A stretch of DNA of 64,000 nucleotides from Takakia lepidozioides (lineage: Eukaryota; Plantae; Bryophyta). The position numbers and the translations under genes are program-made. This document shows, in pieces, positions 22,025-61,401 of the stretch; positions within the stretch are counted from its first letter, which is position 1, and each line of letters starts with the position of its first letter. The stretch spans positions 79,732,001 through 79,796,000 of the forward strand of contig CM060731.1 of assembly GCA_030704615.1 (NCBI GenBank), given 5' to 3'. A model generated the notes under the pieces. It did no database searches. It was not told the origin of the DNA and saw only the letters and a list, made by a program, of their open reading frames with translations.

Positions 22025-25000
22025 TTATGTGAGGGCAATGGTGCTTCCACCACCTGGTGGCTTCCTTATGCCCCCAATGGAGTCTCGGCCTGCAGGCTTG
22101 AAATCAGAAAAGATGTCACTGCCGCTCATCTCTCTCAGCTTAGCCTTACTAGGTTGGTGATGAAGACTCTTTTCTGAGGGCACTCCAACCTCTTCATTGA
22201 AAATATCATGACCCGAGAGTTCCGCCTTTTTCTGATCATGGACCCTGCGAGAAAATGCTTCAGTCTCATCTCTAGGACCAAACGAGATCTGGGATCGTCC
22301 CCCTGCAGGCTGAATCCACACCCAGACAAAGCATCGAAGGACAGTGAGCTGGAAGGGACTACAACAAGAGGCAACACCAAGTTTTAACCTAGTATAGCAA
22401 TAGCAACCCCTCACAATGTCACAATGAAACACAAAGTCTTCAGAAAACAGACTCCAACGAATGAGGTTTCCCATCCACTCCTACTTCCACCCAAGTAAGA
22501 CCGAGAACCTTCTCACAGACCAGCGAGCCAATGCAGGACGGTTAGGACAGATCCATTGCAAAGAACTTTAGTCCAGAATACACCCTATATAATCAATACG
22601 AAAAGAAAACCAACCATGCAATTCTGGCAAATTAGAGTCTTTCTTTTGATTACTGACATGCAGACATTAATAACTTACATTTGAAACTTTTACCGACGTG
22701 CGGACGTTCCGAGGCAGTACTTCATCATGTCCTTTGACTTCTGCCCTAACCTCCTGAGTCCGAGATGGTTTTGGAGCTTCTGGGGGCGCATCTCCAAAAA
22801 TATTGTTTCCTTCCAGTTCCTTGTATTTGGCATGGGAGAACCCTCTCCGTGCCGTAAGGTCATCAGTAGTTTCCACAGTCCCACTTAGCTCCTTCTGTTT
22901 AGCTACCTCGGGAATGGTAACAGGCTTTTTTGGTGACTCACACTCCTCACCGCCAAATGATATTTGGCTGACTCCACCAGCTGGCTGAAATCCCAAGAAA
23001 AGTTGTGCAACATGAAGTTTAGTTCTCATTTCTGGCATTAGCAGAACCACCAGAAGAATTGCATTGAGCCAGTATTACACAAAATTCTGCTCATGACACA
23101 TCTAAGCTATGGCTCCTGCTTGGGCATTACTCCAGAAGTGGAGAACACATCAGAGACTAGTCAATAACAGCTATGCTTCAGTGACTTGACCTGCCCCAAA
23201 TGAGAGTGATAGATGAATGTGGAAGGTTCTTAGTAAGAAAAAGTAAGTTATCTTTTCACAAGTGGCTTGGTTTGTATGAGGTGGACAATGGACAGTCATG
23301 CCAAGGATTCAGTCGAAATGGTCATTATTTTGAGAGCCCACAGCCAAAACTCCCAGGATACCTATGGCCTTGGCTTTATTAGACTGGAAGGGGTACAAAC
23401 ATTTCGATGCAGGTCATGTGGAGGACATTTCATTTCTTCAGGCTCCCAATTTACTTTCGGTGCAGGCGGAGGTGATCGGCAAGGAGAGATAGGGGCACCA
23501 AATATGTTGCTTCCTACAAGTTCCCTGGCTTTCGCATTTGAGTTGGGCCGCCTTGCCTGCTGTACATCCATGACATCTCCTGACCCTCACTTTCATCAAT
23601 TCTGACAACTCTGTACCGACACATCTTCTTTAGTGAATAGCAGTTATCCTTAGCAGTTCCACAAGGCTTTAGATCACAAATTAGTGAGAACCCACTTGGG
23701 AATGGTATCTTTGGTTACCTATCAGTATGAAGTTCTCCAGATGATTTTTTTTTAGAAGTGTCCAAGATTGTGGCATTTGTGAAAAAGCTGAGCACAAAAT
23801 GGGGTTTAAATGAAGTGGTATATGGCTGGAAAAAAGGGAGTGAGATTCCTTCTGGCCTTCAAAATTTGAGGGCAACATGTCACAATGTGGTGGACTTGTA
23901 TGTCAGGATGACCTGACCGTGCACTGGTCACTAACATTAGTCTAGAGTCCTTTGCAAGCAAAAGAGGGCAAGCATTACCTTCTGGCATCGAACACTAGTC
24001 CTGTCCAGTGGAGTACCCTTGCCATCCCCTCGATCTGAAGAATCCCCATCAAATATTCCATTGCCATTCATCTCCTTTTTCTTTGACTCTGAACCAGGCC
24101 TCCTGCCATTTTAATATGAAAGCTATCAACAGAGGTAGCAAACATGCACTTCAGTGACTGGACCACATCCTAAACACTGTCAACAGGGATAATCAGCAAA
24201 TACTATTTGACATGAGGTTTATAGTTACCAGATTGATAAAGTAAATTAGAAGGTGCCCGTGCTGAAAAATGACAGCTCGATGTATAAATTCGCCTACCAA
24301 TTATTTGAATTTCCTTGCCCTAGGTTCCGGTCACGACTGAAAAGTTTTACAGCCATCTCATTGAGCAGGGCCAAAACAACAGAGATAGAGAACTCTTTGA
24401 ACTTTGGAACAAAGCCTTTGGCATACCAAGGATGTATACATGATAGAGAGAATTTTTCTCACTCAGAAGCCTGCTAGTTGTTGCTCCGTGCTTACAAGAA
24501 GATCAGGTGACTCTTTTAAATACCACACTCTTGCCAGAGACCACCGACCTTGAGACTCCAGGTGAACTCACATTGGCAAAATGTCATTGGGAACATGCAA
24601 AGGACAAGAGCAGGTTACCTCCTGAGCAAGGCCTCAGCTTCTTCAGCTGAAAGGTGCTCACCAAACGTTATTGTGCTCACTCCCCCTGCAGGCTACACAA
24701 CAGACAAACCCTCAGGAAAGTAAGTGTTTGGCCTACAAAGCTGGCAAGATTGTATGAACATTGCACCCCTGCAAGCTCACACCGCACTAGCTACCATCAG
24801 ACTGAAACAGGGTGTGGGAAACTTTAAAAAAGAGCAAAAGTGTATCCATCAAATTGGGACCCTGTGTCTGACACTTGGGCCAAAGCAGGAAAACGGACTG
24901 TCTAACTACTTGATGCTTCCTTTTTTCAGCACAAAAGGAGAGGCTTCCAAAAGCCTTGATAGTGACCTTACAACAAAAGAACACTTGTTCTGTGATGCTA

Positions 25001-29970: not shown

Positions 29971-30794
29971 GTTGTGACACATGTCCTGATGGTTGAGTTG
30001 AGGTTATGGAGCCATTTTGTTCTTTCCAATCACTTAGTGCAGAAACTGTCCCAAAAACAATACCTTCATTCGCTCTTTATTTGTTCTTTTCAGTTCTTCT
30101 CTTCTTGACCTCTTTACTATGAGATCTATGGGAGACTCAACTATTTTACATTATGAGGATAAAAATGATGAGAGCAAATAGGAGGAAAATACCAGTGTTG
30201 TGCCGGTATGTGCTAGTCGGCGGGGGTCTGTACAAGGGTATAGGTAACGATATGCCAGAACCAACCCGGCTGGTATTTCATGCAACCTATATCCCGGTTG
30301 TAGGTTCCAAACATACCCAAATTGATACATACCAGTCAAAGTAGTTGGCGGAGCAATATTACTGCGATTGGGAACATACTCAGGGAGTGTTTGGAGATGG
30401 GAGGGGTAGAAGGTATGGCGTACAATGGTCAGCGTACAAGGTATGGCATACAAGGTATAATATGCAAGATTTCTTCAGTTTTTGTCATGGCATCCAGCTT
30501 TTCTCCCATTTGTTATAATCCAGCCTTACAATACAATACAAATTAGTTTGCATGGGCATGCGTGATTGCAATTTTTTTTTTACCTTTTGTATGTTGCCCT
30601 CAATTTTATTTTCAGCTTTGAATACAGTATGATGAATGTTGGGGTATACCATACCATTGTACATACTACCCCAGTATGTCCGTTGAGTTTTTGCCATACC
30701 CATGCCTAGGACATCTCAAAATTGAAAATAGCCATATCCATCCTATAACCTACCCTAGCTTGTCCTAATCTACACTGGGCGGACCCAATAGCCA

Positions 30795-30982
30795 TGTCGT
30801 GCGCATACATATCGCTACACAACTACATCGCTGTCCAAAATCACACAACACATGTGCACGCCACACACTAGTATATCACTAGTCCACCACTAGTCCAGCC
30901 ACTAGTCCAACCACTAGGCTACAACTAGTCAGTCATCAGGCTGCCACTATGCTGCCCACTATGGCAGTCGCTAGTCCACACA
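30795..30982 (-). repeat. Terminal repeat Y, copy 2 (3' end of element)
   Basis: TGTCGTGCGCATACAT...CTAGTCCACACA; matches 31309-31485; contains short CACTAGTC tandem units. Confidence 0.9.
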
Positions 30983-30983
30983 A

Positions 30984-31306: not shown

Positions 31307-31308
31307 GC

Positions 31309-31485
31309 TGTCGTGCGCATACATATCGCTACACAACTACATCGTTGTCCAAAACCACACAACACATGTGCATGCCACACACTAGTATATCACTAGTCCA
31401 GCCACTAGTCCAACCACTAGGCTACAACTAGTCAGTCACTAGGCTGCCACTATGCCGCCCACTATGGCAGTCATTAGTCCACACA
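31309..31485 (-). repeat. Terminal repeat Y, copy 1 (directly after the PPT)
   Basis: Direct repeat of 30795-30982; joined to X2 via GACA-GC-TGTC. Confidence 0.9.
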
Positions 31486-31498
31486 ATCGCCCCCCTAG
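31486..31498 (-). other. Polypurine tract
   Basis: Sense CTAGGGGGGCGAT immediately before TGTGTGG (start of Y1). Confidence 0.65.
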
Positions 31499-31745
31499 CT
31501 GGTGCTTAGGTCCCTCTAAGTCCAGGTAGCCACAAGATGTGATAGTGACCATAGCCTCACTAAGTCCTCCACCACTATCCCTACTACACTCAAACTCAAT
31601 AGATCAAGAGGCCGGGTGCAAGAGTTGCCCCATCGTTAGTCGCCGTCTTGAAATATGTGAACTTGAGCTTGGGATCTCATGTATTGACTCATATGAGCTT
31701 GGCCTCCCATGTCTTGTTAGCTGCCTCCAGTCATGTCCACTGCCA

Positions 31746-31889
31746 CTATCCCAAGCAGTGTGGACACAACCAATCTCCGTCAGGAACCTTCTCAAGAGGT
31801 GGTGTCAAGCATCCCATATGCCAACCCCTTGAGCATCGATCACACACCAGCATGGTGGCTGCCCCTTTGGCAGACCCACAAAGCATGCA
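31746..31889 (-). pseudogene. PHD finger (C4HC3) at the polyprotein C-terminus
   Basis: CMLC-x11-CDRC-x4-H-x2-C-x14-CPHC, with LTPPLEKVPDGDWLC. Confidence 0.9.
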
Positions 31890-32056
31890 CCTCAAACCTG
31901 CAGGTACCACTGCCAAGTTTGGGTCAAGTCTGCCATCGACATTGGGAGGTGATATGGCGCACAATTACGCACATGGTCCTTCCAAGTCATGCTATCCCGA
32001 CCCTCCAAGATCCGGACCCCTGAGGGCAACACCTCTCGAACCCTCAGAATAACACG

Positions 32057-33030
32057 TCATGCAGTAACATTCAGAGTCGTAGGAGCAGTCTGCTGCAAAT
32101 AAACATAGTCACCAGGGCTAAACCTCCGAACCCTAGGACGATATCCTCCACCACATATACTGGCATATCTCAACGTATCACGGTGTTGTGCAATGGCAAG
32201 GTTCTCAAAAGCCATGGGCATGACTTTCTTGAACAACTGTGCACGCTGATCACATGCACGTACCCACACGTCTGGATCGTCAAGGTTAAGGACTTGAGCA
32301 GTGTCCCTACGAATGGTTGCAGGCAAATCCGGCTCTCGGCCAAAGAGAAGGAGATATGGTGAGAAAGATGCAAGTGATGCTTGTTTGCTGAACCTGTAGC
32401 CCATGGCTAACCAAGGAACCTGAAGATCCCAATCTCCTAGGTGTCCCTTCTGCAAGCCATACTTGCGCAAACCCCTCTTCACCGTCTGAACAACTCTCTC
32501 TGCCAAGCCATCGGCCTTAGGATGATCCCGAGAAGTGGTGCGGTGGTCTATCAAGGCTTTATCACACAAAGTCTGAAACTCCCCCAAGAACTTTCTCCCT
32601 TGGTCCGAGAGTACCTCAACTGGAGCACCAAATCGGCTAAGCACACGATCCAAGAATGCATACGCAGCCCCCTCACTAGCTTTGTCAGGCAATGAAACCA
32701 ACTCAATCCACTTGGAGAAGTGCTCCACCATCACCAATACATATCTGTGGTGGCGCATAGTTAGTGGCAACGGTCCTGCAAAGTCAAGACTCCACATGTA
32801 GCCCAATCCCATGATTGGTAAAAGAAGCAACTGTGGTGTAGGGACGTTGAATGAAGCACGCACCCTGTCACACACCATGCACCTAGCCACGAACTGTTGC
32901 ACCTCTGTATGCATACCACGCCACCAATACTGCCCATGCAGTAAACTTGACTGCGTCGTACTCCAAAATGCCCCAACTTCTCATGGGCATGCCGCACTAA
33001 CCGTGCACGTTGTGTGGGGTGAGGCATAAT
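32057..33030 (-). pseudogene. DDE integrase (HHCC + core)
   Basis: HEKLGHFG...CMVC, WSLDFAGP, VEHFSKW, SDQG, DGLAERVVQ; frameshifted. Confidence 0.92.
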
Positions 33031-33489: not shown

Positions 33490-33800
33490 AAGCTTGTCTG
33501 AGTCCATCAACCACTTGAGCGGCTGGTGATCCGTGACAAGGGTGAAAAGATTGTCGTATAGATAGCACCTGAAGTGTGCCACGGCCTACACTGCAGCTAA
33601 GCACTCTCCCTCATATGAGCTGTACTTAGCCCCTGCAGCGTTGTTCGAGCGGCTAGCATAAGCCACTACGAACTCTCTTCCCTCATCATCCACATGTGTG
33701 AGCACCGCTCCAAGCCCCAGCATGCTCCAATCCGTATGCAGCTGAAAGGGACGCCCCCTGATAGGTCGTCTCAGGATAGGCGCCGAGGTCAACCTTGCCT
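33490..33800 (-). pseudogene. RNase H
   Basis: FQLHTDWSMLGLGAVL, VAYASRSN, YSSYEGECLA, LVTDHQPLKWL; contains a stop. Confidence 0.88.
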
Positions 33801-33973
33801 TCAGCTCTTGAAAAGCTCATTCCTGCTCATCTTCCCACTGCCACTCCTGGTCCACCTTGGTCAGCTTGGTTAGAGCCTTTGCAAATGGTACTAAATCCCT
33901 TGACAACCCGTCTATAGTAGTTTGCCAACCCCATGAAAGCTCGAACTCGGCTCACATCCGTGGGGCGTGGAAT

Positions 33974-34720
33974 TTATGCAATGGCCTCTACCTTAGTCTG
34001 CCGTACCCCCAATTCTCCAGGATATATCATGTGACCCAGATACTTAATCTGGTTATGGAAAAACTTGCACTTCCCCGGATGCAACGTCAATTCGTGCGCT
34101 CTCAAGCGCTCCAATACCACCTGAAGGTGTCTCTCATGCTCCTCCACCGTAACACTAAAGATGATGATGTCATCTATGTAGCACCGAGCAAAGTCCACCC
34201 ATGCTAGAATCCTATCCATGACTCTCTGAAACTCTGCAGGAGCATTCTTAAGCCCAAATGGTAAGAACCGCCACTGATATAGGCAATCCTTGCCGTGCTC
34301 ATTGATCCCCCAGAATGTCGTCTTCTGCTTGTCCGCCTCCTTGATTGGCAACTGGTGATATCCAGATCGTAAATCCAAAGTGCTAAAGACCTTAGCATGC
34401 CCGATGGCATCAAAGATCTCCTCTGGTGTTGGCATGGCATACTTATCGGACTTGGTCTGACGATTTACAGGCCGGTAATCACCGCACATACGTCTCTCCG
34501 TCCAATTGCCATAGACATCCTTCTTGGCTGGCATCACTGTGGCTGAAGCATACTCTCTACCAGAGAGCTCCACCAAACCTGCCTCCCAAAGATCTTGAGT
34601 CCTCATCTGAATCAAAGACCTCTCTATGTCACTGTATCTATAGGGTCTTCGAAAGATTGGCGTGTCAGTGGCCAACTCAATACGGATCTCTTGACCCTTC
34701 AGTGCTCCCAAGTCCTTCAA
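33974..34720 (-). pseudogene. Reverse transcriptase (Ty3/gypsy)
   Basis: RMCGDYR, FSTLDLRSGYHQ, LPFGLKNAP, YIDDII, GKCKF. Confidence 0.95.
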
Positions 34721-34879
34721 ACTGAAGGCAAAGCAATTCCTGTAAGCCCTCAGGAACCGTCGTATACGTCGTCTCTCTCCTCCGGTGACAATGGGTCCAA
34801 TGTCAGGCTCCCAATTGTCCTCCGTAATTGCAACCTTAAGTCCAGTGGGCTTAGAGGTAGAGGACGCGTCCAGTGGTTG

Positions 34880-36241
34880 CTATGTTGCAACCTCTTGAGC
34901 AGTACTCCATACCTGCTCAGTCAGTGACAAGGCCTCATCCTGCCCCATCATCTCATCCTCAAGGACTTCCTCCACCCGAGAAAAATCCCCAACCTCATCT
35001 ATCACCGTCACCTTGGCTGCCAACTCCCTCTGAACCTCGAGCACCTCCCACGTGTGGCATGGATGCTTGGACCCCGTGGTCCTCACATGCTCGCCCCCAC
35101 TCACTGCATGTACCGTCTCGGTAGGCAGAGAGACCATCGAGGGAAGTGTACTCCGCACTCTGCGTTGCTCAGCCATAGCCAAACTGATAATCCAGGTCAA
35201 GCAATTGAGATCCATTGCTTGCCCCAACACCTGACGACGTGCTGCCTCAGAAAGAGACGACACCGTCGTGGTACCAGTGGTAAAACCCACTGCCCGCTCA
35301 CGCTCGTCAGCATTAGGCTCCACTAACTGCTGCAACTGAGCATCCCACAGGACGCCAGGTCCACTATCCCGGAAAGCATGCGATCCTGGGAAGCTGAGCA
35401 GTGTAGGTAATGTTGCTCGTGGTTGACCCACCTTGTTGACCACTGCCAAAGGCGAACGGTCATCATGTCTCACACGCTGAGACTGCCTCCCTGTGTCCAG
35501 AATGCTATCCACTGTGAGATGTGTTGGCCGCTGCACCCAATCAAATGCACGCTTGAGCAGTGCGGGTGGCATCAAGTTAGTCCACCATAGCCGTGGACGA
35601 TGAACCCGTGACCCCACTGTAGCTGCATCTAGCAACACTGCTGATCCAAGCCACGACCGGACTTGATGCACACTGGCCATCACCCTGGCCCGAGCATCGC
35701 CCATCAGTGGCACATTCTCCAAGATGTATGCTGGAGATACAGCTTGATGAAGCTGTAAGTGGCGCAAAACCCGCACCATCTCCCAAAACAGACCCGACCT
35801 CGAGTCTCGCAATCCATTGCCATGCTCGGCTGATGAATGCCCTTGGCAGGGCCAACCTGCCACTACCAGATCAATGGAGCCAACCCGCTCCAAATCCAGC
35901 GCCCCCAACAACGAAATGTCTGATGGCAAGGCCTGCTGATATCCACGAACTGTAGACACCGACAACAACTCAGGGTACCGCTGCACCAACTGAGCAACAT
36001 GGCGAAGTAAAATGCGTCGTGCAGTCTCATCCCTCTCCACATACAGGTAACGCCAAACTCGTACACCTGCCTGTAATACAGCAGCCAATCCGGTGTTAAT
36101 CCCGCCAAACAAGTCCAGAAGACAAATGTCTTCATCTGGATACTGCCACACAATAGGTGTGGTGTCCAATGGAGACAACTGAGGTGGTCCTGGTGCAATC
36201 CCCACACTCTCCTCCTCTCCTGACGGTACAAAAGCCTCCAC
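34880..36241 (-). CDS. DNMT3-like C5 cytosine DNA methyltransferase domain embedded in pol
   Basis: Motif I LLDLFGGINTG (~36090-36127), II YLYVERD, III SDI, IV IDLVVAGWPCQGHS (~35830-35875), GLRDSRSGLFWE, VI YILENV (~35710), VIII VHRPRLWWTNL, IX ERERAVGF, X ARRQVLGQAMD (~35210). Same frame as RT, separated from it by a single TAG. Confidence 0.93.
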   Translation of the reverse strand: MEAFVPSGEEESVGIAPGPPQLSPLDTTPIVWQYPDEDICLLDLFGGINTGLAAVLQAGVRVWRYLYVERDETARRILLRHVAQLVQRYPELLSVSTVRGYQQALPSDISLLGALDLERVGSIDLVVAGWPCQGHSSAEHGNGLRDSRSGLFWEMVRVLRHLQLHQAVSPAYILENVPLMGDARARVMASVHQVRSWLGSAVLLDAATVGSRVHRPRLWWTNLMPPALLKRAFDWVQRPTHLTVDSILDTGRQSQRVRHDDRSPLAVVNKVGQPRATLPTLLSFPGSHAFRDSGPGVLWDAQLQQLVEPNADERERAVGFTTGTTTVSSLSEAARRQVLGQAMDLNCLTWIISLAMAEQRRVRSTLPSMVSLPTETVHAVSGGEHVRTTGSKHPCHTWEVLEVQRELAAKVTVIDEVGDFSRVEEVLEDEMMGQDEALSLTEQVWSTAQEVAT

Positions 36242-36549
36242 CCAGGCTTGTTACACCCGTCGATCAGCATCCCGCTGCAAATCCTTGCTTGTGCCCCACA
36301 ATGGAGTCTAAGCAACCATGGTAGACAACCATACCATACATGTCATCCTGCTCTCCCGGAGGTGGCACATCCTCTGAATGAGCGTTGCCCTCAAGCAACT
36401 ATCCAGGCCAACTCACTGCCGTTGTGAATGATGCTAGTGTTGGCATCTTGCCTCGCTGGGCAACCGCAACCCCTCCTATGAACGTCACAGGGAGCTGCAC
36501 ACGCCGGCCCTCCCCTGACTGCCATCCATGCCTATAGGAAGCTGACTCC

Positions 36550-39096
36550 TCCTAAAAATCCAGGGTGAAGCCCATGGGGTACAACATTGCCCCACCAACC
36601 AGGACATCGTACGAGACCGCGTCTATCACAATGGCCTTGGCTCGCATCACTGAGCCATCTGTAGGGTGATCCGGCTGTAGTCAAATAACCAACTCACGTC
36701 GTGTCATGTCCCGAGCCTGCTCCAATCCTCCCAGAGACGTCTGTATCTGGAAATGACAATGCCCCATATCCGCCTTCGTGAGGCCCAAGCCTGCAATAGC
36801 AGCTCTGCCCAGCATCAATGGCTGAGCTCCTGAGTCCAACAAGACCCGCAGTGGCCGGTACCTCTTGCCTGCCGGTCCACTCAAACAGAAAATGTCATCC
36901 TGGTTGTCTAACATGACAACTCCAGGTGTCACCATGGCACGCTCAATGGCTGGCCTAGTTGGCAGCTCCATCAACCTAGCAGCTGCAGCTTGCCATGGCG
37001 CCGCCGTGGCAGTCTTGACCCTCACATCCAAGGATCCCTCCGGCACTACACCTCCCACTATCTCTACAAAAGATGAAGTAACCTCCCCACTCTCACAGAG
37101 TGTAGCTGCCAGCCTGAACACCTCAACTGGTCTTACCCCCGGCGTCGCAATCATGGTAGTCGAGAACAATGGAGCCTGGCACATAGCTGTGGCCGCCCCC
37201 AGCGGCACACTAGCTGCCGTAGCCTTGGCAACATTAGGTAGTGGTGCTGCCCGTGTAGCTCTCCCCAATGGCATAGTAACCTCCGCCTCGGTAACAGTCG
37301 GGCGAGAACTAGGTGCCATGGACGGCGTCGACACTGTCTCCGCCAATGTGAAGGACTGAGAAAGCCTGGCCTGACGGCTTGCCTCCCCACGCTGTGGATC
37401 CAACTCCACCTCCGCACCTCGTGGCTCAGGAACTCGTGCTGTTCCTCGAGTCACTGCCGCAGCTGACTCCACTTGCACTAGTGGTAGTCTTGCCCCGCAC
37501 ATAGTGGTAGTGGTAGTGGCACCCCTCACTAGTGGTAGTGTTGCCCCGCTCATGAATCCCATGTCTCCCAAGTCTCCTCCTTTAGGAGTAGGAGGTGGAC
37601 CCTCCGGCCTTGGAGCCGGTACCAGCTGAGCTGTGGCCATGGCAGTGAGCCTCTGCTCTACCTGCTGAAGCCGGTTGGCCATGCCTTGGTCACCACCCTG
37701 ACCTCCGCGTCCTTGGCCATGTTGAGCTTGCCCTTGGCTTGCACTTTGTGCGTGGCCACCTCGTCCTCTCTGGGCTGCTCCTCCTTGCCTCCGGCCACCA
37801 TTGTTCCCTTGGAACTGGCCTGGGCGCAACTCAAGATGCAAACCATAGCACTGGGCTTCTCCATGCCCGTACTTGCCACAATACCCACACTGCAACTGTG
37901 CAGGCTGTGCATGTATCGGCCCTTTGCATCCCTCTGGGCAATCCTTCTTGACATGGGGTCCTCCACATGTCCAGCACGCCACATCCGCCCGTTGTTGGCC
38001 AGCAAATGAAGGGAGAGACCCCTGCATCTGAGGTCCTCTCTCCCCTTCCCTGAGCTTCACCTGAGCCCCCTTGTTGCCTTGAGCACGTTGAGGTAGTGGT
38101 TGGCTAGGAGCACCACTACCCCGTGGTGTCTCCTTAGCAAATCCCACCATGACTACTCGTTCCTCCACCATGTTGAGCTCTATCCGCTCTGCCAGCAAAA
38201 ACACATTTGCTAAGGTGGGTTGGGCCGCTTGTAGGAGAGTTGCATCCCGCACCCTTCTCCTCAGTTCCTTGTCCAATATCCCATACCAGAAATTGGACTG
38301 CCTGAGCTTCCGTAACCCCTTGGGTTACATTTATCAAGTGCCTCATGCGAGTGAAAGCCTCCCTCAAGCTCTCGGTCGGCTTCCGTTGGAACTCTTGCAA
38401 GCTCCGCAACTTCTCTGTCCTCACCCCTTGGTAGTTCCCTCTCAACTCTTCGAAGAACTCCACAACAGGGTTGAAGGCGGGCACGGGTACTGGTGCTGGT
38501 GCGGTAGTGGCTTGGGTGGACGTCGTAGCTACGGTACCACCAGTCCTACTAGTCCCATTGCTGCTTGCTGAAGCTGCCGGTGCAGCCACTGCCCTCGTGG
38601 CTCTAGTGCCCATAGTGATGGAGACATAGTCGGGTGACCAGTACATCCTCCACTCCTCGATCTCAACCTCATGCCCCCGCCTGAACTCATGGTAATCATC
38701 CATAGGCGGCCCCTCAAGGTGCTGAAACAGCCCCTTCCATGCCATGAAAAGCGTAAATAGTTGTGGATTGCGCATTTGCTGCAAATCACACCAACTATCA
38801 AACTTTTGGATAAAATCATCCAACTCGATGGTGCCCACTGCCCCAGAGTACCTTCGTGGCCCCTTGGTAGCTCCATACATCTCCTCCATTGTGTCCCACA
38901 ACAATGGCAAGGAAACAACTTGCACTGCCGGTATGAGTCCTCCTGATTTACAATCCGAATCAGAACCTTCTGTAGAAGACACAGGAGGTGAAGGTGGCCT
39001 AAACCGCACACCTCGTCTCGTGTACCCACTAGTATCGCTAGTGCTCGAACCGGCACTGTCCCCAGCAACTAGTGGCACCTCCGTGTTGACACTCAA
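36550..39096 (-). pseudogene. Gag (capsid-like + 2 CCHC knuckles) and aspartic protease
   Basis: RYSG..ELDDFIQKFDSWC, FQRKPTESLREAFTR, CWTCGGPHVKKDC, CGYCGKYGHGEAQC, VLLDSGA, DVLVG. Frameshift near 38280 and stop at 36681. Confidence 0.9.
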
Positions 39097-39789
39097 CCGG
39101 TCATGAACATGTCCCTAAACCCCTCTCCACAAGGTAACCGGGTAGAGAACCTGTTGCGGCTTATGGTTTGGAATACTAAGTTCCTAACATAGCCTACACC
39201 TGTACCTGCATCCACTGCAAGCACTCCTATGGTTGGCTGGTCATCACCTCCAACCTCACCACATGAGAAACAATGATGGTCTGGCTGGTCATCACCCCAG
39301 CCTCACCATCGACAACATGCTCTAGGATTGGCCGGTGATCAAATCCGGACCAATCACCTATAAAAGCAAGCGCCCACACAAAACTAGCATGGCGCACAGT
39401 CAAGCATGCAGGTATGGAGGGGATCCAAACACAAGAAATCAGAACAACAACTCCCCCACACCAAAACAACTCCACGGTGTTGCTCCTGCAAGGACACCCC
39501 AGCCCAAACCCGGACTGACTCTTGCCTCCACCTACGGAAAGGTCTTGGCCTAATGAGAGGGTGGAAACTACGAGGAAGAGAAGCTAAAGCAATGCCTAAC
39601 CCCAGCATGCCCTCATCCCAACACTCTTCATCTCCTCTCTTCCCTCACTTGCATGACCATGGGAATATCATGAAGATACTCCTCAAACCGCCCTCCACGA
39701 GCTTCAAAATTAGGCCTTCAAGACCACATGCCAGTCCTTAGGCAGTCCACCAGTGCCTCCACGAGTCAGCACAAGCCGTCTACAGGTCA

Positions 39790-40180
39790 ACACGGGCCAC
39801 CACAGACCAGCACAGGCCCACACAGATCACTGGTCATAGCCGTCACAGCCCCACACAGGCCACAGCCCATCACAACCCCAGAGGCCACATGTCACAGCCC
39901 ATCACAACCCCAAAGGCCACAGGCACAGCCTGTCACAGCCCTACAAAGATCACAGGGTCACAATCCCAAAGGCCACAGCCTGTCATAGCCCCTCACAGCC
40001 CCTCACAGTCCCACAGGCCACAGGGCACAGCCTGTCCCAGCCCGCCACAGCCTGTCACAGCCCTACACAGGTCACAGGGGTCACAGCCCCAAAGGCCATA
40101 GCCCGTCACAGCCCCACAGGCCATTGGGCACAACCTGTTACAGCCCGTCACAGCCCGTCACAGCCCCACAGGCCACTCAT
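39790..40180. repeat. Degenerate minisatellite (CACAGCCC / GGCCACAG units) in the retroelement 5' leader
   Basis: Many TCACAGCCC and GGCCACAG repeats. Confidence 0.85.
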
Positions 40181-41518
40181 GACAGTTAAGCCATTTCTAC
40201 AAGGGGTTTAGCCACGCCAAGCTAGGGTTTGTGTCTCTTGGACTCTAGGCTTCTTTGCACCGAGCTATGGCGGCTGTGAAGAAATCAGCAAGGTATTCTT
40301 GCTCTTTCGGCTCCCACACACCACCAATAGTAGCCCTAAGCCATGAGGAAGATGGTTGCCACAAACCAAGCCTTCTTTCTCACTTAGACTCCCCAAACAC
40401 GCCACTAAACTCAATGGCAAACAACCAAGCCTTGCTGGTTTCCAGCCCTTGTGAGCACTCATTCAAGCGTTTCCCTTGGCCATAACATCTGTCATAGAGC
40501 CTATTCCAGCCCCCTTCACCTGCCACTATCTATCTAGGCTTGAGGTTGAAACCCCAACTCAGAACACGCTCTACAAGTGTCGAACTGTCACATAAGAGCA
40601 GATCAGCCCCTTACCTTCTCTTCTAGTTCTCTAAAGCTTGAAAACAAAAGCCCAATGGACTAAAGGCATGCTCCACACATGCCCCACTTTCACCACCAGA
40701 GAATCAGCCCCTTTGCTTTATTTCTTGCACCCACCAACCTGAAAATACACGCTTCAGCGGGCTGGAAGCATGCTCCACACATGCCCTACAGGGAAACCAG
40801 CCCCTTCCTTCATTTCTTGCACTCCCAAACCTAAAAGTACAAGCCTTCAACAGGCTGAAAGCATGCTCCACACATGCATTGCTCTCACATAAGGGAAGTC
40901 AGCCCTTCCCTCTTCCTTGCTTGCCCTCCAAGCTTAAAGATGGAAGCTTCAATGAGCTGAATACATGCAACCTCTTCACACAAGATGTATCAGCCCCCTA
41001 TCTTGGCTCCTTAGCTCCTTGATGCTCTCTAAGACAAGACTAAGCACTCCACAACCCTTGCCAAGCTCCTGAAACCCTAAGGCTTACATTTCCAGCCACA
41101 AGACACTCCTCTTGTGGTGCAAGAACTCTTCTTCCAAGCTCTGAAACCCTAGGTGCACATTCCATGGCCTTGCCGCACCTCTTAGCTCCTGTTCTAGCCC
41201 TGCTCTTGCCATGACAAGAGCCCTTTCAATGCTGAAGCTCGAGATTGAAACCCAATCTCAACATACTCCACAAAGTGCACTGATTTGCCCCAAGCCAAAT
41301 CAGCCCTTTCGCTTGGTCTTGCAATCCTGCAGCATGGTGTTTTCATCTCTGAAGCTGAAGATCGAATGCCAAGGTCTACCACATCGTAACCCACATCGCC
41401 TCCGCTTCTAACAACCAAGAGCTCCACGGTGCTCTTTGCATAACAACTTGGTTTCTCTCATTCTCAAGCAAAAACCACAAGTGCTACAACTAACTTGTAT
41501 CTGACACTCACAGATACG

Positions 41519-41535
41519 AGCTCATTTTTCTCGAG
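41519..41535 (-). other. Putative self-priming primer-binding site
   Basis: Sense CTCGAGAAAAATGAGC directly follows X1 and is complementary (1 mismatch) to the sense sequence at 41716-41701 within X1. No TGG tRNA-type PBS. Confidence 0.65.
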
Positions 41536-41862
41536 TGATAAAGAAGAAGAATACAAGCACAAGCTCATGCGAGCTCACAAAGCTGAAGCATAAACTCATG
41601 CATATATAACCTCATCACTCAAATACAAGTCAAGCCAAGTGTACCCCACGCCATGGGGAATCCACACTACGGCGCCATAGCTAGGTGCGGTGAGGCTCAA
41701 CTCGAGAAAGATGAGCCTCCCGCGCTTGCCGTGAAGATAACCACTCCAGGGCCTAAATCTGCCTTGACCCCTAGATTGACACTTGGGCCAATCCCAAATG
41801 TCAATACGTAAAAGCTAGCTATTTCCTAGCTAGTTCCACAGTAGTGGTAAAATAACTTGACA
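41536..41862 (-). repeat. Terminal repeat X, copy 1 (5' end of element)
   Basis: 327 bp, TG...CA; about 95% identical to 30984-31306 by eye. Confidence 0.9.
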
Positions 41863-42995
41863 GCCACATTGGACCTACTAGGACCAGTCTGGTATGCCAA
41901 AATGGACATACCAGTACAACAATGGAAAATACAATGTTATAGGAGGAAATATAAGTCATGTCTTCCTTGGGGAGATAATATCGGCATGTGATGGCTAGTA
42001 GACATACCCACACATGCATAAAACTACTCATCCAGGGATTTCATTCATTTACAGATATGGATGAACTACTCCCATTACAGCTATCTTGATCTAATTCGAA
42101 ACTTAATCGCAAGTATTGGTGCTAAGCATCAAAACCCTTTGCATAGTCGGGCCAACAAACATTCTTGTGTAAATATATATTGGTGGAAAAGTTATATATA
42201 TAAGCCAATAAACCAATTATAGTAAAAAAAAATTATATTCAAACAAAACCAAATGTTTAGTATGATTTATCAAAGAGACATGAGGCCAATCGAAATTAGC
42301 GTAAATAAGAGTTTGCAAGGGAATGAGGTTTATAATTGCACTAGAAGTATTTCAAATATTATCTCTAAAAGGTGGGTATGATGGCCACATATTTGGCTGG
42401 AATGATATTATATTGTACTTTGATCACATACTCATTGCGAAGGATGTTTTGTCCATCCGCTGGACGGTAAAATAGATATTGTGAGCTTGCATGTCTCTCT
42501 TCGAGGTTGGGTAGTGCGTGAGCATGGCACAAAGGCATATTCCCCGAATTTCCGCAAAATTTCCGTGGAATTTCCACAGCGAAACGAAATTGGCGAAACT
42601 AACAATTATGCGAAACTAACACATAAAGAACGAGTAACCCCTATACAGGAGCAAGAGTGGGCGGTGAGGCTTCACCTCAAATTTAAGGTCTTTGCCCATG
42701 GATAATTTCGCATGGAGAAACCAGCCTGAGAAGAAATCACAGTGTAGCTAAAAGGATGAATAGGTCACTTTAAAGCCCCTACCCATGGATGTGGGATTGT
42801 TGGGTGATGGGATTTCGTATAGAAAGTTTCGACTCAAGCTATACCATTAAGGGTTTCTCAATGCAAAACCCACCGCTGCTTAGGTTTGTGCCCATATCAC
42901 ATATCATTTCTCAATGCGAAATTCGCCGCCACCGTTATAGGTTTAGGGTTTCTGGCTACACTACTGAAGGTTTCGCCTCGCTGAATTGGCACAGA

Positions 42996-44565
42996 TCAAT
43001 AAATGAATCGAGACGTTTGTTTTGTTTTGTTTGCTTTGTCACATTGAGATGTCCGAGATGTCCCAAATCGCGGTGCCCCAGCGCTGGTGTTTGGTACCGT
43101 TGGAAAGCCCTCGATGAGGAGGGGTGCACGGGCTTGGTCGCATGATTTTTGGACCTACGGTGTGGGAGATGTGGAATTCAAGTACTTTGGGTCGTCGGAA
43201 ATTCGGGAAAAATAGCAAAGTGGGCATTCCTGGGACAATGGTTGGAGCCTCGACATGAAAGATATCAAGGGAAAGGGCTCCAATTCAAATCTGGTCGTAG
43301 GCTTTGTGGAAAAAAAAATGCATTTGGACTTAGATGACATTCGACACTTGGGCCAACGGCACAGGCTACCCTAGAGACGGATAAATAATGATAAGATATA
43401 TTACTACTCAAAAAATTCATGGAAAAAAATTAATCGGGCCTTGACACGGGAGAGGTACTTGGATACATATGTGATTGCACACCAGGCTTAGATAGGCCTC
43501 AACATGGGTGACGCACATGGGAGATGCCTTTGGATACATAGGAGATTGCACTTGGGCTTAGATGACACTGGACACTTGGGCCAACAGCACAGACTACCCT
43601 AGAATCGAGACGTTTGTTTTGTTTTGTTTTGTTTTGTAGCATCGCTGAGATCTCCCAAACCTGGGGCCCGGGTGCTTGGTGCCGTTGGAAAGCCTTCGAT
43701 GAGGAGGGGTGCACCGGCTTGGCGCAGTGTGGGAGATATGGAAATTGAAATGCTTTGGGTTGCGGGAAATTTGAAAAAAATAGCAAAGTGGATATATCAA
43801 TATATGAAGCTTCGACAAGGGAGATTGCAAAAATAGCAAAGTGGGCTTTGGGATTGCATTTGGTCTTAGTTGACATTGGACACTAGAGGTTGCACTTGGG
43901 CCTCTACATAGGAGAAGCACTTGGATACATAGGAGATTGCACATGGGCTTAGATTTCAATTCTTCATACACGGGCCTCGACATAGGAGACGCACTTGGAT
44001 ACATATTGGAGCTATGATTGGCCCATCATGTGGCAGATTTGGAATTTCAAGTGCTTTTGGTTGCTGGAAATTTATGAAAATTAGCAAAGTGGATATATCA
44101 ATATATGAAGCCTCGACAAGGGAGATTGCAAAATAGCAAAGTGGGCTCATAGGCTACCCTAGATTTCCCGAACTGCAGGGTCTATGGAGACATAGGGGAT
44201 TGCACTTGGACTTAGATGACATTGGATACTTGGGCCAACGGCACAGGCTACCCTAGAGGTTGCACTTGGGCCTCGACATAGGAGACGCTCTTGGATACAT
44301 AGGAGATTGCACTTGGGCTTAGATGACATTGGACACTTGGGCCTCTACATGGGAGATGCACTTCGATACATAGAAGATTACACTTGGGCTTAGATGGGCC
44401 TCAACATAGGAGGCGCACTTGGATACATAGGAAATTGCACTTGGACTTAGGTGACATCGGACCTTGGGCCAGCGGAGGCTACCCTAGAGATCACACTGGG
44501 CCTCAATAGAGGAGATTGCACTTGGACTTGCATTGGACATTGGACAACGGCACAGGCTACCCTAG
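42996..44565 (+). mobile_element. Composite non-autonomous Helitron-like element
   Basis: A|TCAATAAATG 5' end; 3' end CAACGGCACAGGCTACCCTAG|T; no TSD. Internal duplicated blocks and five internal CTACCCTAG ends. Confidence 0.7.
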
Positions 44566-48800: not shown

Positions 48801-51541
48801 AGTTCAAGAAACTCATACGTGGGAAGAAGTTCCGGGTGAGGATGATGACAAAAGCTGTGGCGCAATGTGCCGACTTCTCTAGACTTCCTTGTGATATCCT
48901 TGTCTCAACTCCACTGCGGTTGGATGCTCTCTTGAAAGACCACAAGATTAACCTTAGCAGGTCTGACACTACGAACCTGATCAGCCTGTGTGACTTTTTC
49001 ATCACTTGATGTTTCATTGTAAGGATGAGACAGAACTATGTTTGGACATCTAAGGGGAGTAACCCTTTGCAAGATCCTCATGAGTTTGAGCAATGTATTG
49101 TTAACTTCTGTTCGCATTGGTGGCACTGGAAAGCTGCCTGAAAATAATGGCTTGTACTGCCACCAAGGTTGTATGTTGACCTGCTCCATGTCTTGACGAG
49201 ATTACCTACTGGGCTTTGCTGATTTGATTTGTCATGGAAGAGTTGCATTATTTTGGTCGCAGAGTGGAGCATTTGGTCATGGATGAATCAGATAAGCTAT
49301 TTGAGATGGGATTTGTGGAGCAGATTGATGCAGTTGTAGCAGCTTGCATCCACCCAACCATCACACGGGCCCTCTTTAGTGCCACATTGCCAGATTCTGT
49401 TGAAGAACTGGCACGTTCCATAATGCATGATGCTGTCCGTATTGTCATTGGGGAAAGGTAAGAGGTACTATCTAAGTGAATGTGAGCTTGCTAGAAAGTA
49501 GATGAGTCCAGCGATATGCACTTCTTACTATGTTCTATTTAAGAATTTCAATGTGTTTTTCCCGCTTCAGCTCTGCAGTTATGTCTGACTAGGATGACAC
49601 TCTCTGGTGCTGGTTTTGGATTGTGATTTACTTTCCTTGGCAAGTTCTGCATCTTTTACCAGCACTAAAGCAAATGATCAACCTACTCCTTGAGAGTTGT
49701 AGGCCATCTACACATTGCTCTCGTGTTAAATAAGGATGCTACATAGACCGGGTGGATCTTACCAACCCGTGGCTAGAGATGGTGGCCTTGGTGTTAAATG
49801 GTCCTCTCCACATATGACTCTGTATAGTTGTCAGTCAATATTGGGGTATTTAAGTTGTAATTTTTGGGTGCAGGAATTCAGCATCAGAAACTATCAGGCA
49901 GAGGTTGATTTTTGTTGGCAACGAGGAAGGGAAGCTTCTTGCACTGCGCCAGATTTTCAACCAGGTTTGTCCTTGTTATTTGAGAAGTATGGGGTCATCT
50001 ATCTGTGCTTATGTGGCCTTGGCTTGGTGGTTGGTGAGGAGCATGGCTTGATGATGATCAAATGCAGACGGGCGGACTGAATTGATGCCGTGTTGATTGT
50101 CTGTCGTTAATCTCAACATCTTGGTGTTGTATGATTCTGAAAGTCTTGCCCTCATAGCCTGACTATGGTTTCCTCCCTGTTGAAATTTGTCAGATCAGGG
50201 TTCATTAGCTCTTGTATCCAGATGCTAGTTCCGATGTGCAAGAGGGGTTCTGGCAAATGATGATCAACATCTTATTCTGCACCCTGAAATTACTCTGTGG
50301 ATATAGTAATTTACCTCTGACAAGCTGATGCTCAATCCCTCTCATTGCATGGGTTAACATAGTATGTTCATGACAAGAACATAGCAGTTCTAGCTTACAT
50401 TCACAAGCTATCTTATAGTTCATGTTGTCTAGCAGGTAATGATTGACATCTTATTCTACACTCTGAATTGCTTGTGGATGCAAATTTTTACCTCTTAACA
50501 ATCTGATGCACAAAGCTTGTTTGGCATTCACCATTGCAAGCGGTCCAGCCATATAGATTTCTTTGTTACTTGATCTTTGAATATCACGAACAAATTGTTA
50601 CTGACACCATATTTCCTATGCTTACTGACACCATATTTCAAAGTTCTGCTGCCCTTCAGAAATGTTGTGCTCTTATCAGTCGGAATATGTTTTCATGGTT
50701 TGGTCTCAACTTGGCCTGTACTAATTGCTCTGCAGAGTCTGCAGCCTCCAGTGTTGTTATTTGTACAAAGCAAGGACCGTGCTAAGCAGCTTCATAGAGA
50801 GTTAGCATATGATGACATCAATGTGGACATCATTCATGCTGATCGAACTAAGGCCCAGGTAGAGAGATTTGATTGACGATGTAAATGTGCAACATCAATT
50901 TGCTATCTGCAGTCTCTTAAAGTTGGTTGTCTTGAAATCTTGAGAATTGGTGGTTTATGTACTATGAACAACTAAGACTGTAGTTGGCTTCTAATTGCAT
51001 GGTGTTCTCTCCTCAGAGAGATGCTGCAGTGGAGAAGTTCAGAGAAGGAAAGACTTGGGTACTTGTTACAACAGATTTGTTGGGGCGCGGCATGGATTTC
51101 AAGGGTGTCAACTGTGTGATCAACTATGATTTCCCGCAGACAATTTCTTCGTACATTCATCGAATAGGTGCGTGCACTGGTTTGCCACAAGCTGTTTCTC
51201 AGACTGATAAAGTATATTATTGGGCACATTTTGATAGTTACTCTGTGTTTTTGGTAAGTGTGACTTCTCCTACCTGGTGCGCAGGTAGAAGTGGAAGAGC
51301 AGGGAGGCCTGGTCAAGCAATCACCCTCTACACAGAAGATGATGTGCCCTTGCTGCGATCCATAGCCCATGTGATGTCCGCCTCTGGCTGTGAAGTTCCT
51401 TTATGGATGATCACTCTGCCCAAAACCTCAAAACGAAAACATACTCCAGTACGAAGTTCTATAAGCATGAGGCCTGGAGCAGCTCCTCAGGTCTGGAAAG
51501 GGAAGAAGCTCAATAAACCCAAACCATCTTCGACACTTTGA
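45870..51541 (+). CDS. RH57: DEAD-box RNA helicase, RH57/ROK1/DDX52 type
   Basis: [13 protein letters not shown]-terminus, Q motif [14 protein letters not shown] (~47500), [42 protein letters not shown]; GT-AG exons. Confidence 0.9.
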
Positions 51542-53299: not shown

Positions 53300-55792
53300 C
53301 GAGGGAGCATAGGTCCAGAAGGTGCATAATCGCAATGGTCGCAGAGAGTGGAGAGTTTATGGCAGCAAGCAAAGGCTTCCTGCAAAAACATCTGCTGGGG
53401 GAATAACAGGAGACGACGACTAAGTTTGATAGTACATCGCTTGACTCTGTAATGGACCATTTCTCAACATTGGCCTCTCCAAATGCTCGTTATCAAATCA
53501 ACGTCCTTAGGACTGGGGCAGGCAGGCAACAGAGGATACGTGGATAGCATCCTAGAATTGAAGCACAAAAGCCGATACGACTTCATGCGGGACGGTGTTT
53601 TCCCAGGGCAGGGGTCCCAAAAAGTATACTTATTCAAGATGTCCACAGTTGGGGAGGGTTTTGGAGGTAGCCTGGTGCGTAGAATGCAGGCCGGAGGCGA
53701 TCTGCACAAATCCTAGATAATGTTTGATCACGTGAAGCGAGTGAAGGATTGGACGACCATGGCCTGTCATGTGTATGATCCTACATACCAGTGAGTTATG
53801 ACTATTGCTGTTTGTGACATGTAGTTGGAGGACACAAAGTCCCAAATTCTTATGTGGAAGGCTCTGGTTAACGTCATGCGAGTTCATGGTGTGCCAGATG
53901 CAAATTTCACAAGGTTTATGGCTGACAGTGCACAAGCTAATTGGAATGTTGTGCGGACTGTGTTTGGCTCTGGTGACCCCAAAATACCAATGCAAGGCCG
54001 GGAATGCACTTGCCTCTTTCATTGGACCCAGTCCCTTCGACGGCTCACAAAGAATTCCATAAAATTGGAGTTGCAAGAGGAGCATCTGCGACTTTGCCGT
54101 CTTTATAAAGATGCCACGACAGAGTGGGAAGCAAATGTCATGTTTCAGACTATCAGAGCATGGTGGTACTCCTTTGAGGCGGCGAGTCTGGATGGAATCA
54201 AAGAGCTGGAAGACTGGTTGGGCTTTTGGCACTTCAGATTCAGACAGTGGGGTGCCTTCATGACCGCAGTAAGTTGAAATCATACTACCATGACTCTCCT
54301 TTCTTCTTAGACATAAGGGGGGTATATGCACCAGCGTCCATGCCGTCCAGTCCAGTTCGAATGCTACTCCACATAACAGTGGCATGTGTGTAATTACCTG
54401 CAGAATATATCACTGGAAGACATTGCGGATATGCCATCCTGCAATCTGGCGGAGACTATTCATAGTATGTGGATGGCGCAATCAGGTAAGAATGGTCGGA
54501 ACCTTTATGTTGCAACTGCAGATGACCTGGTCCACGCGCTTTCGCAACAAACAAAGTACCGAGACTTCCTGAGGGGACGGGTTGCTGGTAAGGGGCTGGA
54601 CAGGGCAGAGTTGCTGCTCAAGACTGCAAACAGATCCAAGCATCCAGCAACAATGGCGCGTGCTGTTAGCGAGTACACAAATGGAACACCTTTGCAATCC
54701 AGGCTTCACATCTGGAAGGTGAGGAAAGATTCGGATCATGCAAGCGCAAACTAGACACCCCTCCAGGATCGGCAGGTGACTCCTATCGGCATGATAGAGA
54801 CAATTTCTCCATACCTCGTGTGCCTGTGCCACCCAATTTTGGATCTAGCACTCCATTTGTGGGTGCATGTTCTTCTGCATTTTTCAATGCAACATATGCC
54901 ACAGTTCCAGCACGGGGAGAAGGACGGACGGTGCTACCGGTCGAAGAGACCGATTGTGGTGATGCAATGTGGCACATTGAACGGACTCCAAAAGGATTGA
55001 AAATTGGTTATTCTGCTATCAGGGCCTTGTCTTTTGTGAAGTGCACAAGTAAGATTTGTAGAGGCGCCGGCGATACTCCGGCCCCGACTTTCACAAGTTT
55101 GTTCAAATTTACTCAGCGCGGGATCAGTCTAGACCTCACAAGTTTTGGTTCTGCCCCAACGACATGAGCGTTGTGTGATGGGGACTTGTCGGGATTCAGT
55201 CATCAGCAAGCCTATCATCCCTGTCGTGTGGCCAGTCAAGGTCAGGACATCTCTCTCCGAACAAGAGATTGACATGTTGGAGGATGTTGGGTTTCGACTT
55301 CCAAGAGGGCCAACAGTCCTAACACCAACATCATCGCGGGGTATGGCATCCGCATTCCCTGCACGTCCACCGCATGGGAACGACTGGCCAACGAAAAGGA
55401 ATGGAAAACCGGTTCGTTGTGTTGAGGCAGGTGCAGATAACCAGTGCAAAATTGAGTCTGCTAGAACCCTGCAGTGTCGGGTTACCCAAATTGTGAATGT
55501 CCCCCCTCCAGGCTATGGGCGGGTGTACAGTATGATGACAACGGGATCTGTTCTTCATGACAAGACTTATAAGATTACTATTGGCAATTTTCCAAATTGC
55601 ACATGCCCGGACTTCGACAACACGATATCAAGCTCCATTGGAAAGAGAGGGAAATTTGTCCCATGCAAACATCTTTACTACATCTACATTCACATGATGT
55701 TTTGTGATCCTCAACGAGACACGTGCATTCACCAATGCACAATGGGTCCCAGTGACGTTCAGACACTTCTGCAGCGAGATAGGTATAGTTGA
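53300..55792 (+). pseudogene. Mutator-like (MULE) DDE transposase with C-terminal SWIM zinc finger, decayed
   Basis: MFDHVKRV (D, 53726), FMADSAQA (D, 53924), CLFHW (CxxH), intron 54269-54403, NLAETIH (E), SWIM CTCPDF...CKHLYY. Several stops; the 5' limit is unclear. Confidence 0.75.
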
Positions 55793-55946
55793 CATCTGAG
55801 GTGTTCTCTCGGAGTTTTATATTTGTTAATGATTTCACTTTGCTGAATTACTTTGAAATTTTGTAATGGCTTCACTTTCGCGAGTTCACCAATGTTTTTA
55901 AATTGATCCACTTTGTTCAATGACATCAAAATCTTCTCCATTTTTG

Positions 55947-55979: not shown

Positions 55980-56560
55980 CTCGTGTTGGGTGAAATTCTC
56001 ATGTCCCAACAGGGCAAGGGATTAAGATGTTGTTGACGACACCTTAATGCCTGCTTCCTTGAACAGGATTAAGCTCCCCCCTATGTTTTTTTCCAGGGGC
56101 GATTGTGTTTATGGGGAGATGTTCATGGGTTCATTTGTCATGCTGAGCATGCGATTTAAGGTGTCGTTGACGACACCTTAATGCCTAGTTCCCTACACTT
56201 GTTGATCCCTGAGGAGACATGTTCATACAGTCGTCCATAGTCCCCTCATCTGGACAACTTTTCATCCGTCACTCATCCAATGTTCATCCATTCCATTTTA
56301 CGTCCATCCAAATACATTCATCCGTGAATGTTTCATCGTGCATTCGTGCTACATTGTCGCCATGGAGCCTGTCTGTCTTCTTGCCGATGGAGCGGAGATT
56401 GCATCGTTGCAGTGCGTCCACGGCAATAGGCCCACTTGTTCCCTCGGTTTTGGGGTCCGCATCAGAAAATCTGCTCACATTTTCAAAATGTTCACGCTTC
56501 GGAGAATCTGTTCACGCATAAAGAAATCTGCTCACAGGTTCTGCTCACGGCTTTGCTACC

Positions 56561-61399: not shown

Positions 61400-61401
61400 T
61401 G

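Follow-up and report, generated by a model that had tools for sequence, protein, structure and literature searches.

A DNMT3-like methyltransferase ahead of a conserved, probably leaky stop codon in split-repeat Ty3/gypsy retrotransposons of bryophytes

Introduction

A retrotransposon that encodes its own DNA methyltransferase raises two questions: how the enzyme is produced, and what it does for the element. The role of retrotransposon-borne methyltransferases has been open since 2018, when they had been found only in two poorly tractable algae. Here we consider a land-plant case, in a 64,000-nucleotide stretch of the Takakia lepidozioides genome (contig CM060731.1; hereafter the window). An earlier note, made from the letters of this DNA, placed a complete DNMT3-like cytosine methyltransferase (DNMT) within the pol region of a Ty3/gypsy element and read it as part of a single polyprotein interrupted by one plausibly mutational TAG.

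Anatomy of the element

The element is a decayed Ty3/gypsy copy of 11 kb on the minus strand, running from 41862 to 30795. Its features, from the 5' end, are as follows.

41863..41866, minus strand: 5' copy of the 4-bp target-site duplication, TGGC, identical to 30791-30794
41535..41862, minus strand: repeat A1, the 5' end of the element, beginning TGTC; 13 differences from A2 over 323 nt, 12 of them transitions
39200..41534, minus strand: long 5' non-coding region, with degenerate tandem repeats at 39854-40176 and 40705-40877
38290..38889, minus strand: N-terminal part of gag, 64% identical to Marchantia protein P0003; PF03732 at E=0.0019, below the cut-off of that profile
36330..38321, minus strand: C-terminal part of gag and aspartic protease; CCHC zinc knuckle from 37889, LLDSGA from 36842
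35180..36145, minus strand: DNMT3-like C5 cytosine methyltransferase domain, without stops, motifs I-X in canonical order
34883..35179, minus strand: linker of about 100 codons, poorly conserved in sequence comparison, ending ORF1
34874..34882, minus strand: conserved stop with readthrough-type context, TAG CAA CCA, which fits CAR-YYA as defined in PMC2754532
33977..34879, minus strand: reverse transcriptase (RT), in the DNMT frame; PF00078, E=6e-33; YIDD at 34180
33601..33816, minus strand: RNase H, partial, with more breaks around it; PF17919, E=2.2e-19
32060..32980, minus strand: DDE integrase, H2C2 and core; PF00665, E=3.4e-13; PF17921, E=3.4e-6
31749..31904, minus strand: PHD finger at the end of ORF2; PF00628, E=1.5e-12; also in relatives
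31488..31500, minus strand: polypurine-tract-like G run, AGCTAGGGGGG, directly before B1 (repeat comparison)
31309..31487, minus strand: repeat B1 (repeat comparison), ending GACA
31307..31308, minus strand: two-nucleotide GC spacer at the B1/A2 junction GACA-GC-TGTC, the same junction as in loci L035 and L002
30984..31306, minus strand: repeat A2 (repeat comparison)
30795..30983, minus strand: repeat B2, the 3' end of the element, ending GACA; 8 differences from B1 over 179 nt, all transitions
30791..30794, minus strand: 3' copy of the target-site duplication, TGGC, identical to 41863-41866

The order gag, protease, RT, RNase H and integrase, with an integrase of the DDE type, is that of Ty3/gypsy elements. 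The gag frame is broken near 38300, and the segment carrying the rest of gag and the protease (36330..38321) holds three stops and a further break near 36340, which leaves protease and DNMT of this copy in different frames. The Asp_protease_2 profile is matched by the relatives P0016, P0020 and P0028, in the last of these above cut-off. About five frame breaks and 14 stops fall within the tblastn matches, among which overlaps may count some twice, and the copy in the window is dead.

The methyltransferase domain

The DNMT domain lies in an open reading frame at 36250-34883 on the minus strand, between the protease (LLDSGA, 36842) and RT. All of the motifs named in the earlier note were found on that strand in canonical, non-permuted order: I, FGGINTG, 36109-36089; IV, GWPCQG, 35857-35840; VI, ENV, 35719-35711; VIII, HRPRLWW, 35602-35582; IX, ERERAVGF, 35305-35282; and X, LGQAM, 35227-35213. 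The profile check that the note had proposed gave a match to PF00145 at E=8.6e-11 and 42.3 bits, above the cut-off of 22 bits.

The closeness to DNMT3 suggested from motif wording was borne out by three kinds of search. DNMT3A ranked first in a PDB sequence search (2e-10) and in a PDB profile search (8e-26, against 2e-13 to 2e-9 for DRM-type entries and 2e-7 for M.HhaI), and was also the best structural match in Foldseek (E=4.3e-20, TM 0.74) for an AlphaFold model of the domain with a pLDDT of 92.4. The domain is thus DNMT3-like and non-permuted, and is not a DRM. Host plant DNMT3 and DRM proteins share the DNMT3 superfamily fold (PMC6453930); the domain of the element differs from them in being intronless and embedded in a retroelement, and from DRM in being non-permuted (PMC6453930).

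The W[PE]CQ motif is retained in 38 of 43 full-length DNMT domains, many of them from decayed copies, and the catalytic Cys, ENV and the motif VIII Arg are conserved together with the fold. The DNMT of sound copies is probably catalytically active.

Distribution and selection

A one-off capture of the domain by the copy in the window, and an algal origin of the contig, were considered as rivals. Related elements do occur in algae, more distant homologues being found in Haematococcus lacustris (P0158) and Monoraphidium neglectum (P0039). However, the exact 4-bp target duplication lies inside a contig with intron-containing plant genes, and the last exon of the DUF4057 gene is closest to clusters from Sphagnum (77% and 71%), followed by Marchantia (63%) and Ceratodon/Physcomitrium (49-54%). 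This single exon points to a bryophyte host, probably a moss outside Sphagnum, and to nothing narrower. The DNMT itself groups with Marchantia, Calypogeia and Sphagnum-type copies in a 100/100 clade, and many copies carry the domain. Contamination or a one-off capture is thus a negligible prospect, which removes the concern over an algal contaminant that the earlier note had raised.

The note had also asked whether most copies of the family lack the domain. When contigs from four sequencing runs were compared at 80% likeness, DNMT and the RT part had similar summed depths in the DNA runs X1, X2 and X5, depth being no copy number. Among named proteins, homologues come from Marchantia polymorpha (many), M. 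paleacea, Riccia sorocarpa, Calypogeia fissa and several Sphagnum species. Among the 120 of 135 matches listed (7989 candidates scored) there is none from a vascular plant, Physcomitrium or Ceratodon, which is a weak negative, and no protein named Klebsormidium appears among the homologue matches listed.

Purifying selection, for which the note had proposed a test of dN/dS below 1, is evident. The between-family pairs that are least saturated (three pairs; L022, L023, L031) give a dN/dS of 0.10-0.12 for DNMT and 0.05-0.16 for RT, most deeper pairs being saturated; between two decayed copies of one family (L002-L017) dN/dS is 0.75. Since the domain occurs throughout the family and purifying selection acts on it, the DNMT is an integral, selected part of the element family and not a one-off capture.

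In the DNMT tree the 100/100 clade is nested in a 98/96 clade of 18 rows, 17 of which end or stop after DNMT; the eighteenth is a gene model in which the linker is left out. In each of five Marchantia proteins, 1278-1281 aa long, the sequence ends 98 aa past motif X, and M. polymorpha carries several unbroken Gag-protease-DNMT ORFs, annotated as hypothetical proteins. The RT tree is a quick version with the outgroup on a long branch, and we claim no order of events from it.

A second architecture, RT-RNase H-DNMT-integrase-PHD, is present in L048, L049, L053, L057, L059, L060 and L064 and in P0030-P0032, P0035, P0144, P0146, P0148, P0158 and P0039. It forms its own 99/95 clade in the DNMT tree; its named members are the chlorophytes Haematococcus lacustris and Monoraphidium neglectum, and no report of this chlorophyte arrangement was found in the open-access literature. 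PHD fingers of this type mostly have acidic residues just before the first Cys, and those of the clade of the window mostly do not; such residues are typical of readers of unmethylated H3K4. The A-B-A-B repeats described below were not found in contigs of this type, which are possibly too short or collapsed.

As a separate matter, a viral origin was considered and rejected: a scan of viral contigs gave two partial matches of 30-35% identity with no RT nearby.

A conserved stop with a readthrough-type context

The earlier note was right that the DNMT lies between the protease (DSG) and RT, in the RT frame, with the single TAG at 34880-34882 between them. It took this TAG for a chance lesion, which would be a CAG to TAG change at a methylated CHG site in one gag-protease-DNMT-RT polyprotein. 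The copy is indeed full of transitions (12 of the 13 differences between the A repeats and all 8 between the B repeats), and in the basal relatives P0028, P0143, P0149 and P0169 DNMT and RT do share one continuous ORF.

We surveyed 80 metagenome loci together with the window. DNMT precedes RT in 47 of these; in another 15 it sits between RNase H and integrase or immediately ahead of integrase, and 19 uninformative loci were left out of the count. A stop upstream of RT and in its frame is present in 46 of the 47, and CAG occupies the position in none of them (46 relatives and the window). CAR-YY follows the stop (TAR-CAR-YY) in 38 of the 46 stop-bearing loci, which are not independent, as 36 form one family that matches Sphagnum fallax P0026 in the linker. 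By comparison, the 261 distinct decay stops of these loci include 5 with CAR-YY after them, and the in-frame background is 1.1%. When loci were grouped into clusters set at under 75-80% nucleotide identity, TAR-CAR-YY was found in 6 of 10 divergent clusters, although the linker protein is not conserved. Six of the 46 loci have the full CAR-YYA, and it occurs in five of the ten clusters.

The contexts are TAG CAA CCA in the window and L001, TAG CAG TTA in L022 and L023, and TAG CAA TCA in L031 and L058; the commonest family (36 loci) has TAR CAA CCC or CCT, one base off CAR-YYA. Four of the ten clusters are without the motif: L027 has TAG-TAG-CCA, L067/L068 and L075 are decayed, and L072 has TGA-CGG. 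In L030 and L039 TAC (Tyr) replaces the stop about 250 nt past DNMT, which could be decay or a sub-family without a stop. Among the 40 of 201 rows listed, the host's own copies show no variant at 34874-34882.

L023 shows the natural layout: an ORF1 of 1369 codons, TAG CAG TTA and an ORF2 of 1047 codons follow one another in the same frame, and the stop is the only break. Because the stop is conserved, the chance-lesion account is refuted for the clade of the window, and overall we hold it to be very improbable. What stands of the earlier claim is that the DNMT belongs to the element and is no captured neighbour; the single polyprotein across the TAG does not, and the one-ORF test that the note had proposed for the family would fail in this clade.

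ORF1 thus encodes Gag, protease and DNMT, with DNMT at its end, upstream of a predicted recoding site. CAR-YYA is the readthrough signal of TMV, and in plants it works with UAG, UAA and UGA (PMC2754532). Readthrough of 6-10% was reported in stable Arabidopsis lines, with Tyr inserted at UAG and UAA in readthrough of the TMV type (PMC2754532). From the stop contexts we consider it very probable that programmed readthrough yields RT, RNase H, integrase and PHD finger. Such a site resembles those of TMV-type readthrough, SIRE1, Tca2 and MuLV, in which an in-frame stop is followed by CAR-YY(A) with the polymerase downstream (PMC2754532, PMC2194720). In SIRE1, Tca2 and MuLV, however, the stop lies at gag/pol or pol/env (PMC2194720), whereas here it lies between Gag-protease-DNMT and RT, which would be an unusual position for readthrough in a retroelement.

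The stop could be programmed and ORF2 nonetheless be expressed by another route, for instance from an internal promoter, after re-initiation or from RNA spliced across the linker, with CAR-YY incidental. Four NCBI gene models from Marchantia and Sphagnum (P0006, P0010, P0011, P0026) join DNMT to RT and skip the linker, but they use four different junctions, as expected of prediction artefacts. A precedent for non-standard bypass is Tca2 of Candida, which has a conserved stop and yet gave no readthrough in yeast reporters (PMC2194720), so conservation of a stop does not imply that a local signal is used. Against such routes, RT remains in frame with ORF1, and across lineages the stop context agrees with an established signal. 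A conserved AUG is absent from ORF2, the first Met being codon 3, 14, 48, 92, 117 and 117 in six lineage representatives. A contig from run X12, whose status as RNA is a guess, covers 34400-35254 without gaps. We regard another route as distinctly unlikely and readthrough as the preferred reading. RNA folding after the stop gave z-scores of +0.2 to -4.0 in nine representatives with no shared fold, so a structural stimulator is not supported.

In a distant subgroup TGA stands 13 codons after DNMT. L066:1291-1299 reads TGA-CAA-TTA, a perfect CAR-YYA; L072:875-880 reads TGA-CGG, which is the type II signal of TRV (PMC2754532), with RT in frame. Readthrough may possibly have been gained separately in this subgroup.

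Split repeats and integration

The element is organised as A-coding-B-GC-A-B with TGTC...GACA ends, so that it has split repeats and no normal LTR pair. The two A repeats differ by 4.0% and the two B repeats by 4.5%, nearly all transitions. All three complete copies have TGTC...GACA ends and 4-bp duplications (TGGC in the window, AAGG in L035, CATA in L050), which agrees with the TG...CA ends and 4-6 bp target duplications of Ty3/gypsy elements. The element lacks the pair of equal terminal LTRs and the tRNA primer site that are also usual in that group; a TGG-type primer site after A1 is absent in all three, and no tRNA gene lies within the 64-kb window.

The G run AGCTAGGGGGG precedes B1 in L035 and L050 as well, and is present in L018 and L023. 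This G-rich tract stands before B rather than before the integrated end, and the B/A junction has the form CA-NN-TG in the window, L035, L050, L002 and L023. One tentative explanation, to which we give somewhat less than even odds, is that A-coding-B-GC-A-B represents a two-LTR circle (LTR = B-GC-A) that was opened by integrase at CA-GC-TG inside one LTR.

Relation to known elements

The closest described element is KnitGypsy-Dnmt3 of Klebsormidium nitens, in which the Gypsy domains are joined by a Dnmt3-like domain that is intronless, non-permuted and under purifying selection, and the repeats follow a DIRS-like order (PMC5890265). A-coding-B-A-B is given there for DIRS, and the same repeat structure for KnitGypsy (PMC5890265). 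Because DIRS-type repeats and Gypsy domains are common to both, the element described here belongs to the same kind. Judged by the published description of KnitGypsy-Dnmt3, it is a variant of that kind and not a new system. The differences are that KnitGypsy-Dnmt3 has an algal host and the bryophyte element a land plant, and that its DNMT lies in the Pol ORF (PMC5890265), as it does in the basal P0028, P0143, P0149 and P0169, whereas in the clade of the window the DNMT ends ORF1 before a readthrough-type stop. A PHD finger has no mention in the main text on KnitGypsy-Dnmt3 (PMC5890265).

SymbioDIRS-Dnmt3 likewise has a Dnmt3-type domain in a retroelement with A-B-A-B repeats, and it methylates CG de novo in yeast (PMC5890265). 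It has a tyrosine recombinase, in contrast to the DDE integrase and 4-bp target duplications of the bryophyte element.

Phygy of REXdb is also a bryophyte non-chromovirus Ty3/gypsy lineage, with a 4-bp target duplication and a similar size of 7.7-10 kb (PMC6317226). It was rejected as an identity of the element: Phygy has NCGN target sites (we found TGGC, AAGG and CATA), a tRNA-Trp primer site and no extra domain listed (PMC6317226), none of which is shared. Troyka, with CG...CG termini and a 3-bp duplication and described from animals only (PMC12440569), was also rejected against TGTC...GACA and 4 bp.

A 2025 survey (PMC12344493) cites the same cases of DNMT-bearing retroelements. No land-plant retrotransposon with a DNMT was found in the accessible text of PMC12344493, PMC6453930, 10.1101/363937 and PMC9477723, and the three text supplements of PMC5890265 do not mention Marchantia or Sphagnum. 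The earlier note knew of no description from embryophytes, and our search agrees: no report of land-plant members or of the readthrough site was found in the open-access literature. The land-plant range and the position of the DNMT on the Gag side of a likely leaky stop are likely the new points.

Proposed mechanism and role of the methyltransferase

Taking together what was observed of the domain order and the fold, the catalytic motifs, the purifying selection on the domain, the stop conserved with its context and the repeat anatomy, we favour, at a probability of roughly 60%, the reading that this is an old split-repeat Ty3/gypsy family with an ORF1 for Gag, protease and DNMT, a leaky stop, and a packaged DNMT that likely methylates the element's own cDNA. 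In this scenario one transcript would give mostly Gag-protease-DNMT and a few percent of full-length protein, in which occasional readthrough of the stop would add RT, RNase H, integrase and PHD finger. Particles would take up the methyltransferase in amounts like those of Gag, and the PHD finger may guide integration. The chances seem even that the protease frees DNMT in the particle and that cDNA is methylated before or at insertion, so that new copies would be pre-marked. Methylated insertions would then arrive marked as host-like or pre-silenced. Expression at Gag level is not required for keeping the DNMT, because some relatives have it in one uninterrupted ORF with RT and others have it between RNase H and integrase.

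The DNMT may instead be kept for a role other than methylation of cDNA: DNA or RNA binding in the particle, methylation, jointly with the PHD finger, of the insertion site or of host loci, or protection of cytosines against deamination. Amounts at Gag level would far exceed the catalytic need for one cDNA, and members of the clade carry the DNMT at one or the other of two places in the polyprotein. The observed/expected CpG ratio of the element (0.48) equals that of its flanks (0.47 and 0.55), with no extra or special signature of CpG loss. The Klebsormidium domain gave no methylation in yeast, which its authors did not take as decisive (PMC5890265). On the other hand, conservation extends to the fold, the catalytic Cys, ENV and the Arg of motif VIII, and the analogous Dnmt3 domains of Symbiodinium DIRS elements are active de novo on CG (PMC5890265). 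A role of this kind is in our judgement rather unlikely, and methylation of the element's own cDNA is preferred.

A wider version of the preferred reading is possible, though we hold it as doubtful. It supposes an ancient, unrecognised green-lineage clade of Ty3/gypsy elements, spanning chlorophytes, charophytes, liverworts and mosses, with a DNMT3-like enzyme and a PHD finger, whose members would integrate from a circular intermediate after its opening within the LTR. On the branch that includes the bryophytes, a leaky stop of TMV type would have come to lie between DNMT and RT, loading every particle with active enzyme that methylates the cDNA before insertion. If true, a land-plant retrotransposon would be writing its own epigenetic state.

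Since Marchantia polymorpha is a genetic model and carries unbroken Gag-protease-DNMT ORFs, the function becomes testable there. The conserved leaky-stop context predicts the enzyme in Gag-like amounts, which narrows the models. Copies of the element inflate the counts of DNA methyltransferases in bryophyte annotations, and LTR finders that look for a pair of equal terminal repeats would likely fail on its split ones.

Other features of the window

Host genes with introns lie at about 9000-14400 (plus strand), 22025-23100 (minus strand) and 50984-51541 (plus strand), and are a kinesin, the DUF4057 gene and a DEAD-box-type helicase. A separate, decayed Ty3/gypsy element of chromovirus type occupies 56400-59100 (minus strand), with integrase, SH3 and a weak chromodomain match. 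Two gag-bearing segments of about 91% identity lie 2285 nt apart within 59100-64000; in them 59106-59587 is inverted relative to 61497-61880, as in a rearranged or nested element. At 53600-55800 (plus strand) broken ORFs resemble, by eye, a SWIM-finger (MULE-like) transposase, with no Pfam match at E 0.01. Degenerate repeats of 50-75 nt are shared in opposite orientations by 59-1100 and 43070-44500, and possibly belong to a non-autonomous element.
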